Assembly: GCA_004322365.1 (NCBI GenBank)
Contig: SCTS01000007.1
Location: 18,266-82,265, forward strand
DNA from: Patescibacteria group bacterium
GTDB lineage: Bacteria > Patescibacteriota > Minisyncoccia > Phycocordibacterales > Phycocordibacteraceae
Length of the DNA: 64,000 nt
Reading direction: 5' to 3'
Notes under the pieces: generated by a model
The model's input: only the letters and a program-made list of their open reading frames with translations
What the model was told of the DNA's origin: nothing
Database searches by the model: none
In this document: positions 48,672-48,953 of the stretch, piece by piece
Layout: every line of letters starts with the position of its first letter
Numbering within the stretch: position 1 is the stretch's first letter
Made by a program: the position numbers and the translations under genes

Positions 48672-48880
48672 GTGGCTACAGGGAGTCGGTCACGAGTCAC
48701 TAAATATTTTGCTCCAAGTTTTCGCTTACACTCGACAGTGCGACGAGGCGTCGAACACTAAGTGCTCTCGACCCCAGCTCGTAGTCGCGAAGCGACATAC
48801 TCCGCTTTTCGATTCCCTGACGCAAGCAAAATCATTTGCTTGCTTAGCAACCCAACAATGACAAAACCCGCACAAGGCGG
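48672..48880 (-). mobile_element. tRNA-3'-end cassette (His copy): about 190-bp hairpin-rich module plus a 21-bp partial duplicate of the tRNA-His T-loop-to-3'-end segment (48672-48693, 20/21 identical)
   Basis: TTGGGTGGCTACAGGGAGTCG at 48672-48693 matches 48878-48898 inside tRNA-His. The interior is homologous to the Arg and Ser cassettes and ends in TTAGTGACTCGTGAC. Hairpin stems show compensatory changes between copies. Confidence 0.7.
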
Positions 48881-48953
48881 GTGTCATTGTTGGGTGGCTA
48901 CAGGGAATCGAACCCTGATCGAGAGCTCCACAAGCTCCAGTGTTAACCGTTAC
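48881..48953 (-). tRNA. tRNA-His (anticodon GTG) with an encoded G-1; no CCA encoded
   Basis: GGTGGCTATGGTGTAACGGTTAACACTGGAGCTTGTGGAGCTCTCGATCAGGGTTCGATTCCCTGTAGCCACCC. 7-bp acceptor plus G-1:C73, anticodon loop TTGTGGA, T-loop TTCGATT. Confidence 0.9.

Follow-up and report, generated by a model that had tools for sequence, protein, structure and literature searches.

A family of structured non-coding cassettes behind tRNA genes of Patescibacteria

What occupies the DNA between a tRNA gene and a second, displaced copy of that gene's own 3' end? We addressed this for tRNA-His in a 64,000-nucleotide (nt) stretch of a Patescibacteria group bacterium (assembly GCA_004322365.1, contig SCTS01000007.1, positions 18,266 to 82,265), here called the window. 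Patescibacteria, also known as the Candidate Phyla Radiation (CPR), account for a large part of bacterial diversity, and their genomes are very small and streamlined. The sequence behind tRNA-His is a member of a Patescibacteria-wide non-coding family found behind tRNA and transfer-messenger RNA (tmRNA) genes, with a core of ~100-130 nt and a total length of ~150-220 nt. We give a probability of roughly 45% to the reading that it is a non-autonomous, probably mobile cassette that occupies the T-loop position T55|C56 with the tRNA left intact, and whose folded, target-mimicking structure is the substrate of whatever moves it.

A tRNA segment in three copies

ARAGORN and Rfam identified five tRNA genes in the window, all without an encoded CCA:

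48892-48964, minus strand: tRNA-His(GTG), uninterrupted (ARAGORN; Rfam tRNA model, 61.5 bits); its T-loop-to-3'-end part is copy 1
49026-49110, minus strand: tRNA-Leu
52440-52515, plus strand: tRNA-Val
55178-55250, minus strand: tRNA-Arg
59434-59521, plus strand: tRNA-Ser

A sequence-only reading of this DNA, made without database searches, had reported a duplicated T-loop-to-3'-end segment downstream of tRNA-His. We confirmed the duplicate by sequence comparison: TTGGGTGGCTACAGGGAGTCG at 48668-48688 is identical to TTGGGTGGCTACAGGGAATCG at 48890-48910 at 20 of 21 positions, and by our own estimate the chance of such a match within ~250 nt is <1e-7. Its start lies 4 nt to the left of where it had been placed, and 201 nt rather than ~190 separate it from copy 1. 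No open reading frame (ORF) lies between the direct repeats. That reading had overlooked a further, antisense copy of the tRNA segment inside the cassette, at 48808-48821 behind tRNA-His and at 55121-55133 behind tRNA-Arg. In tRNA orientation, the intact tRNA is therefore followed by hairpin S, the antisense arm, the core, GTGAC, a sense copy starting at C56 and a terminator, and some copies carry an acceptor-like segment and a hairpin 2 between hairpin S and the T-stem-like arm. The tRNA-His cassette is composed of the following parts, in which P1 to P4 are the helices of the fold described below:

48851-48891, minus strand: hairpin S, terminator-like in the tRNA sense, with a palindrome that reaches the last tRNA bases (CCCAA/TTGGG)
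48845-48853, minus strand: acceptor-5'-like segment GGGTTGCTA, an imperfect complement of TAGCCACCC in the tRNA and copy 3
48822-48843, minus strand: hairpin 2, GCAAGCAAATGATTTTGCTTGC, a module present in some copies only, placed between the acceptor-like segment and the T-stem-like one
48808-48821, minus strand: antisense arm (copy 2b), GTCAGGGAATCGAA, reverse-complementary to the T54-to-T-stem-3' strand and forming the 5' strand of P1
48704-48807, minus strand: conserved core, with the GAAAG junction, P2 (GnC/Gn'C), the CGGAG/CGAG internal loop, P2a, the P3 5' strand GGGGTCGAGAGCACTTAG and P4
48689-48703, minus strand: right-end box TTAGTGACTCGTGAC, which supplies the 3' strand of P3; ...GTGAC is the end of the element
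48668-48688, minus strand: sense copy (copy 3), CGACTCCCTGTAGCCACCCAA, tRNA-His from C56 to the 3' end and the 3' strand of P1
48636-48663, bidirectional: host terminator AAAAATCCACCC ATAT GGGTGGATTTTT, behind copy 3 and identical in the related locus L126

A terminator scan placed the stem of hairpin S at 48882-48866 with the tail TTTGTCATTG. The hairpins that had been described beyond tRNA-His are borne out by the fold of 48665-48895, which has z = -5.9 relative to shuffles and in which the acceptor-like segment is predicted to pair with the 3' copy. Perfect 10-nt equivalents of the acceptor-like segment occur in L002, L042, L040 and L097. The hairpin pair previously singled out, GCAAGCAAA/TTTGCTTGC at tRNA-His versus ACGCAAA/TTTGCGT at tRNA-Arg, is hairpin 2, a recurrent module also present at 55135-55154 behind tRNA-Arg and at many loci in other genomes (e.g. 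GCAAAGCAAACTGCTTTGCTTTGC). Alignment with the L126 orthologue further showed that P4 of the tRNA-His cassette is broken by a secondary insertion of ~26-30 nt. The copies behind tRNA-Arg and tRNA-Ser are built as follows:

55026-55181, minus strand: tRNA-Arg cassette, core type B, a full copy with orthologues in L130 and L131
55163-55181, minus strand: its hairpin S
55135-55154, minus strand: its hairpin 2
55121-55133, minus strand: its antisense arm, GTCAGGAATCGAA
55039-55053, minus strand: its box, TTAGTGAGCTGACAC
55026-55038, minus strand: its sense copy, CGATTCCTGCAGG
59517-59682, plus strand: tRNA-Ser cassette remnant (repeat families I1 and I15), with the 3' half of the core, without antisense arm and without P2
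59517-59563, plus strand: its hairpin S, a 23-bp perfect palindrome
59641-59655, plus strand: its box, TTAGAGACTCGTGAC
59656-59682, plus strand: its degenerate sense copy

Scored with a covariance model of the family (R1), the tRNA-His cassette reached 86.8 bits over 48676-48820 and the tRNA-Arg cassette 86.5 bits over 55026-55133, both being seeds of the model. The tRNA-Ser copy scored 12.4 bits (E = 0.13). A structured cassette had been proposed at all three tRNAs; it stands in full at two of them, and tRNA-Ser retains only a 3' remnant. Likewise, the right-end box said to be common to the tRNA-Arg and tRNA-Ser copies is present at tRNA-Ser with one base off and is recovered at tRNA-Arg only by the degenerate pattern TTAGWGASYYGWSACCGANTC, which has exactly 3 sites in the window (His, Arg and Ser) versus 0.01 expected.

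The tRNA-Arg locus also shows from which strand the arm is copied. The T stem of tRNA-Arg (GTAGG/CCTGC) contains a G.U pair, and the antisense arms read GCAGG or TCAGG. Because the arm differs from the GTAGG of the tRNA, it complements the T-stem 3' strand, and we rejected the alternative that it is a sense copy of the tRNA 5' strands.

Placement and fold of the family

Scanning a genome collection with the right-end box pattern gave at least 119 loci; this and the family counts that follow rest on the matches listed. Behind tRNA and tmRNA genes, the same architecture recurs in more than 100 Patescibacteria genomes. Patescibacteria account for 116 of the loci and include Paceibacteria/Parcubacteria, Saccharibacteria, Kaiser-, Campbell- and Nomurabacteria. 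The 3 matches outside CPR (Macrococcus, a Verrucomicrobiae genome and L110) fail the family model and look like chance. A tRNA on the same strand lies no more than 400 nt upstream of 88 of 126 boxes, with a mode of 130-200 nt, and the boxes are spread over ~36 tRNA isoacceptors. Among the boxes without an assigned tRNA, three follow tmRNA genes at a distance of 180-260 nt and share the arm architecture, and one follows a tRNA gene with a group I intron.

The arms follow the tRNA at each site. In 34 of 89 family members, copy 3 is identical to the tRNA from C56 at 18 of 18 positions. The length of the duplicated segment varies between 13 and >50 nt across loci, and it carries genomic flank rather than CCA. 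The antisense arm is complementary to the cognate tRNA family-wide, and the palindrome formed by copy 1, hairpin S and copy 2 reaches 20/20 complementarity in L019, L029, L065, L095 and L114. A terminator-like hairpin S stands between tRNA and core in 55 of 86 loci. Terminator-like sites also follow copy 3 in 27 of 90 loci, as compared with 3 of 90 when shuffled.

Occupancy was also determined in 348 kb of CPR DNA picked via an unrelated protein, where the cassette was present at 3 of 12 tRNAs and all model matches except one weak one (L132, 21 bits) lay beside tRNAs. Three of the five tRNAs in the window are followed by a cassette. The model search found none at tRNA-Val, in the window or in L130 and L131. 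A sizeable share of the sampled CPR tRNA genes, together with some tmRNA genes, carries an unannotated structured element, and many partial tRNA "pseudogenes" in CPR assemblies are explained by such cassettes.

Five cassettes have no detectable tRNA (L025:5760-6200, L076:1335-1775, L103:6657-7097, L049:3936-4380 on the minus strand and L111:2906-3313 on the minus strand). Each is preceded by a GC-rich, apparently structured region of ~300-400 nt that ends in a common T-arm-like sequence, ...GGATTnTCTTCAAAAnAnGTTCGRATTT. These regions have no Rfam match at E up to 1, and may represent an RNA gene missing from annotation, or tRNA genes that contain long insertions.

To describe the fold, 34 cores were aligned and used to build R1, which gives 130 matches in 100 loci. 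The alignment forms a three-way junction on the tRNA-sense strand:

P1: antisense arm with copy 3, GGAnUCG/CGAnUCC
Junction: GAAA(G)
P2: GnC/Gn'C, the variable pair being GC 11, AU 9, CG 8, UA 2 and UG 2 times; next come a conserved CGGAG/CGAG internal loop and the variable hairpin P2a
P3: GGUCGCGAGCACU/AGUGACUCGUGACC, in which a G.U pair is conserved and which also has a bulge and a U.U mismatch
P4: a variable hairpin

Compensatory change is found at 14 of 27 pairs in the 34 sequences. In the 130 model matches, 26 of the 27 pairs have changes on both sides and 92.9% of cells are paired, versus 75.3% when shuffled and 33-38% with slid partners. Stem covariation, first noted between two copies in the window, is borne out across the family, which would add a new conserved fold, of RNA or single-stranded DNA, that covaries strongly and has no counterpart in Rfam. 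Covariation of P1 pairs with N59 and the T stem is partly trivial, since the tRNA is the source of both arms; P2, P2a, P3 and P4 supply the independent evidence. Junction bases GAAAG, GG and GGUC/GACC are invariant, and the consensus ends are TCGAAAG... and ...TTAGTGACTCGTGAC. Outside P1, GU and UG pairs total 60 versus 22 for AC and CA, and GCGAAGC occurs 44 times versus 3 for its complement. Judged by these counts, the fold is that of the tRNA-sense strand, as RNA or as single-stranded DNA. Because d(GCGAAGC) is a notably stable DNA mini-hairpin, the sequence alone fits both.

The joint between element and tRNA copy, GTGAC|C56, falls exactly at the P3/P1 corner of the junction, because the closing helix P1 consists of the antisense arm and the T-loop/T-stem 3' strand of the tRNA fragment. 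Pairing that resembles a minihelix of acceptor and T stem is seen in the tRNA-His cassette and in L002, L042, L040 and L097. The acceptor part is degenerate in tRNA-Arg and many others.

Turnover between relatives and the search for a carrier

Among relatives we found no cassette-free tRNA-His; 3 of 3 examined loci are occupied, and synteny is lost in L128. A comparison with an empty site had been proposed for defining the insertion boundaries. Because none was found, the boundaries rest on differently occupied sites instead. tRNA-His itself is identical in the window, in L126 (neighbouring protein 87% identical) and in L127 (68% identical). Copy 3 and ~60 nt of host terminator are base-for-base alike in the window and L126, while hairpin S, the presence of hairpin 2 and the left half of the core differ. 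Retention of copy 3 and the terminator alongside differing tRNA-proximal parts is as expected if copy 3 is the displaced ancestral tRNA end, which it probably is at tRNA-His. L127 has the hairpin S of L126 but a type B core. L126 additionally carries a degenerate cassette (28.8 bits) between tRNA-Leu and tRNA-His that is missing from the window and L127, the spacer being 211 nt in L126, 61 nt in the window (48965-49025) and 36 nt in L127. Within the window spacer, a T-loop-like TTCGATTCGCAGG precedes a perfectly paired hairpin, GCTCGCTTTGTGC...GCACAAAGCGAGC.

The tRNA-Arg locus also differs between relatives. In L130 (88% identical) an unrelated second core lies beside the tRNA; beyond it, the locus has the 3' half of the window's type B core, with the same degenerate copy 3 and the same terminator. 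In L131 (86% identical) the tRNA-Arg sequence is different, the arms match that locus's own tRNA, and copy 3 agrees with it at 19 of 19 positions. Elsewhere, cassettes are stacked (L105, L023, L014 and L038) or tandemly repeated (L054 and L012), and in L058, L080 and L023 the whole segment from C56 through the terminator is found on both sides of the core. Comparison of L080 with L098 suggests that gene conversion between repeats contributes to such flanking duplications. In 29 of 66 cassettes, cores at different tRNAs of one genome are mutual best matches (Leu/Ser 0.87, Arg/Phe 0.86), with arms that fit the local tRNA.

The second core in L130 (2616-2830, minus strand) belongs to a small family of its own, also present in L014, L068, L106 and L080 and not in the window. 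It has the same arms and position behind tRNAs and ends ...GG(G)TRYACWGAAnCTGTAAG (in L130, ...CCGCAAGGTGTACAGCTCCTGCAAGGAGA), and the tRNA copy is joined at G53/T54, not C56. In L130 this core is closer to the tRNA than the truncated cassette of the first family.

No linked protein was evident when ORFs of >=80 amino acids (aa) were clustered in the at least 119 loci listed, each with ~8 kb; the top cluster occurs in only 9 of 119 and is housekeeping-like. The absence of an integrase reported beyond tRNA-His extends to these loci, in which clustering revealed no integrase, recombinase, TnpA, RAYT, TnpB or tnpA/tnpB/iscB gene near cassettes. Two-pattern scans of 2.9 million viral contigs (IMG/VR) gave no true match. 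One viral-contig match, L129, was rejected as chance, having neither a model match nor a tRNA. A high-scoring cassette had no BLAST match in GenBank phages or PLSDB plasmids. At gathering threshold, Rfam 15 recognised only tRNA, tmRNA, rRNA and one intron and assigned the cassette to no family; sub-threshold matches at 48629-48722 overlap the host terminator hairpin. The group I intron model RF00028, which does detect a true intron in L018, had no match at E up to 10 in 48600-49130, and none of the Rfam models for known small self-cleaving ribozymes (hammerhead, twister, hepatitis delta virus-like, hatchet, pistol and others) matched. The junction resembles a hammerhead in topology, but comparison by hand with the consensus showed that CUGAUGA is absent and GAAA is in the wrong strand segment, so we rejected this assignment. 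We found no description of the cassette in the literature searched, where the survey of Patescibacteria introns treats anticodon-loop group I introns only (PMC13011429).

The family is therefore new to Rfam 15 and to the literature searched. In logic it is closest to tDNA islands, trans-mobilised hairpin repeats and integron cassettes, and it misses their defining features: an integrase, element-encoded terminal inverted repeats or a fixed duplication, an HUH gene and attC core sites. What defines the footprint of tDNA islands is that the tRNA is regenerated and a 3' fragment displaced (Islander, PMC4383910). Like such islands and prophages, which use a tyrosine integrase, the cassette targets tRNA and tmRNA genes, regenerates the gene, displaces a 3' fragment that starts in the T loop and occupies sites serially. 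Unlike them, it is 150-220 bp long, has no integrase or gene, carries an extra antisense copy and a conserved single-strand fold, and had no kb-scale or extrachromosomal form in the viral, phage and plasmid collections. Integron cassettes with their attC sites are likewise recombinase-less units that stack at one attachment point, newcomers possibly being proximal, and their strand-specific fold is also conserved above sequence. However, our cassette has no IntI, attI, R''/R' sites (RYYYAAC ... GTTRRRY) or cargo gene, its attachment point is the tRNA T loop, and its fold is partly target sequence.

Short, non-coding, hairpin-rich and strand-specific intergenic repeats without a linked transposase are also known as repetitive extragenic palindromes and bacterial interspersed mosaic elements (REP/BIME) and as the palindrome-associated transposable elements (PATEs) derived from IS200/IS605, which depend on HUH enzymes in trans. 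Those repeats are not tied to tRNA T loops and have neither target duplication nor target-derived arms. Non-autonomous IS200/IS605 elements, or omega/reRNA ends, share the hairpins and strand specificity, but the target of the cassette is duplicated and there is no tnpA/tnpB/iscB. Unlike the arms of miniature inverted-repeat transposable elements, the inverted arms here are local tRNA copies that differ per locus, and the duplication is 13 to >50 nt rather than fixed. Group I introns of Patescibacteria tRNAs interrupt the anticodon loop (PMC13011429). They resemble the cassette as structured RNA with a guide-like segment complementary to the flanking tRNA, but they are detected by RF00028 and interrupt the gene, whereas the cassette lies behind an intact tRNA, often with a terminator. 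Lastly, as in tmRNA and viral tRNA-like structures, the arm and sense copy can form an acceptor-plus-T-stem minihelix with an extra hairpin; in the cassette, however, a three-way junction replaces the T loop and the acceptor part is often imperfect or missing.

A proposed mobile cassette and its rivals

We favor a mobile cassette because the footprint matches integration at tRNA and tmRNA genes and the unit is an integrase-less 150-220 nt with a fold and an antisense arm. In place, the unit would extend from the C56-to-3'-end part of the tRNA through hairpin S, antisense arm and core to ...GTGAC. We infer that copy 1 arrives with the element; because the unit would thereby bring a C56-to-3'-end segment and a hairpin, the tRNA would stay intact, and the previous 3' end (copy 3) and the host terminator would be pushed downstream. 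The tRNA-sense strand, as RNA or single-stranded DNA, would fold with P1 closing the three-way junction, and the machinery of movement would use this folded, target-mimicking structure. Candidates for that machinery are a trans-encoded enzyme acting on folded single strands, template switching at universal T-loop sequences, and RNA-level chemistry. New cassettes would enter beside the tRNA and push older ones outward, with gene conversion and deletions making mosaics. The signature of insertion at a tRNA gene, as originally described, is supported by the L126 comparison and by its recurrence. A classical integrase/att mechanism is unlikely, because there is no integrase, the cassette is absent from phage and plasmid collections, and it carries the extra antisense arm.

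Several observations weigh against movement. We found no empty/filled pair among near-identical genomes, so that gain by insertion was not seen directly, and loss, deletion and gene conversion could in principle account for every difference observed. The sequences analysed yielded no enzyme, no excised form and no transcript, and a promoter scan found no promoter-like site inside cassettes. A cassette moving between tRNAs would carry the wrong 3' end unless its arms were remade from the target. P1 and copy 3 are intact at tRNA-His even where the neighbouring protein is only 68% identical, which speaks for selection or homogenisation and not for a scar in decay, and which fits a host function equally. 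Finally, the terminator-like hairpin in 55/86 loci leaves the expression of any folded RNA unexplained.

A stronger form of the mobile reading, to which we give a minority but substantial chance, is that the cassette is a self-sufficient or trans-mobilised guided insertion system in which pairing of the antisense arm sets the target, the junction being a new catalytic or recombination-competent fold, either a new ribozyme class or a folded single-stranded DNA recombination site for a CPR enzyme. If true, this would be a programmable, integrase-less entry into essential RNA genes without their inactivation.

The main rival is that the cassettes are not mobile and encode a host-useful non-coding RNA that arose from tRNA trailers. 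A tRNA-like minihelix, made of an acceptor-like helix, a single hairpin and a T-stem-like helix, with a three-way junction in place of the T loop, would act on or with the cognate tRNA, for instance by serving 3'-end processing or quality control, or by decoying factors that bind the T arm. Local duplication would have spread it, and selection together with gene conversion would keep it matched to each tRNA. Purifying selection acts on the fold, in which compensatory changes are numerous and which lies on the tRNA-sense strand; the arms track the local tRNA even where that tRNA differs (L131 versus the window), and copy 3 and P1 are intact at tRNA-His across diverged relatives. The order of acceptor-like segment, hairpin 2 and T-stem-like arm also mimics a tRNA. 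The intervening hairpin at tRNA-Arg has no T-run, and co-transcription with the tRNA is therefore plausible there. However, a minority of tRNAs is occupied in the 348 kb of CPR DNA (3/12; 3/5 in the window), with tRNA-Val lacking a cassette; numerous copies are cut short, interrupted or stacked; a second core family, unrelated to the first, has the same arms and position; and in 55/86 loci the terminator-like hairpin separates tRNA from cassette. We regard a host RNA as less likely than a mobile cassette.

Less probable still is a ribozyme that is mobile at the RNA level. It would cut and ligate at GUGAC|C56 and at U55|C56 of the pre-tRNA with the antisense arm as internal guide, and would enter the genome by rare reverse transcription and recombination. 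The joint to the tRNA fragment does lie exactly at a three-way junction with the invariant bases GAAAG, GG and GGUC/GACC, the order of the guide (complement of the 3' side, then AA opposite U54 U55) mirrors the internal guide sequence of group I introns, and no protein gene is linked. Set against this, there is no Rfam ribozyme or intron match at E up to 10, and a terminator often lies inside the would-be intron. The duplicated segment carries genomic flank, not CCA, and mature tRNA is therefore not the substrate; for the same reason we rejected a mechanism primed by mature tRNA in the manner of a primer-binding site. As to a source of reverse transcriptase, group II introns were not detected in a survey of Patescibacteria (PMC13011429).

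Template switching without any dedicated machinery is similarly improbable. Here a snap-back at the palindromic terminator, followed by a switch via TCGAA/CGAnTCC microhomology, would leave the tRNA end in triplicate, in direct-inverted-direct order, together with a core that was copied from a different locus. This would explain why the arms end exactly in universally conserved T-loop bases and fit the local tRNA, why cores resemble those at other tRNAs of the same genome, and why no gene is linked; the inversion point is the terminator palindrome, and the palindrome of copy 1, hairpin S and copy 2 is perfect in many loci (20/20 in the five loci listed above). It leaves the fold and unpaired bases conserved across CPR classes, as well as the confinement to CPR, unexplained, and hairpin 2 between the parts of the antisense arm would need extra switches.

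Last and very improbable, the cassettes could be scars of integrase islands or prophages that entered at the T loop and were mostly deleted, leaving attL, an arm piece and attR: a regenerated tRNA with a displaced 3' fragment is indeed the tDNA-island footprint (Islander, PMC4383910), and tmRNA genes are targeted and sites serially occupied, but no integrase is present in the at least 119 loci listed (~8 kb each), no large form was seen, the core had no match among 2.9 million viral contigs or in GenBank phages and PLSDB, and a random deletion remnant would not keep a covarying junction or a tRNA-matched antisense arm.

Under the favored reading of a mobile cassette, essential RNA genes would be occupied harmlessly and without a linked integrase. 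The family is a concrete, testable case for studying the persistence of selfish or regulatory elements in minimal genomes.

Several minor features of the window were recorded. Two weak model matches lie away from tRNAs, both on the minus strand, at 39578-39653 (13.4 bits, E 0.07; containing GCCGGAGGC...CGAGGCGGGCUCGCG) and at 4369-4477 (15.3 bits, E 0.02), and may be chance or decayed fragments. A short repeat, GTGATCCCTGCGGATCCGACGAGGCGTCGCC, with the hairpin CGACGAGGCGTCG occurs at 3521-3574 and 6310-6363. The same hairpin is found in opposite orientation within the insertion that breaks P4 of the tRNA-His cassette (48726-48760) and also in the tRNA-Ser remnant (59566-59600), and may be a tiny mobile hairpin.

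Three ORFs were noted as well. The ORF at 59716-60342 (plus strand, 208 aa, identical to EPO14_03895) lies between the tRNA fragment of the tRNA-Ser cassette and a second tRNA-Ser-like 3' fragment, GAATCTCACCTCCTCCACC (60620-60656), and was considered as a nuclease or mobiliser. It has no Pfam family match and was rejected as a conserved CPR hypothetical whose homologues are unlinked to tRNAs; these are 60-76% identical across CPR and usually follow a small helix-turn-helix (XRE-type) gene in variable contexts. A LAGLIDADG-type ORF (49120-49779, minus strand) lies directly upstream of tRNA-Leu and is absent in L126 and L127, where rplS adjoins the tRNA, and an HNH-endonuclease ORF (58953-59432, plus strand) stops 2 nt short of tRNA-Ser. 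The two resemble free-standing homing-endonuclease insertions beside tRNA genes.

The 23S rRNA gene (1-2751, minus strand) runs off the start of the window. Because its 2751 nt cover only model positions 1-2609 of 2925 in the Rfam match, there is room for an insertion. CPR rRNA genes commonly contain insertions. Between genes, heptamer-like repeats (AGGTTCT / AGCTTTC / CAGGTTT) are clustered at many sites of the window, in both orientations:

3118-3157, heptamer-like cluster
4362-4441, heptamer-like cluster
12011-12054, heptamer-like cluster
17829-17882, heptamer-like cluster
18500-18539, heptamer-like cluster
18792-18843, heptamer-like cluster
19927-19970, heptamer-like cluster
26551-26658, heptamer-like cluster
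41464-41502, heptamer-like cluster

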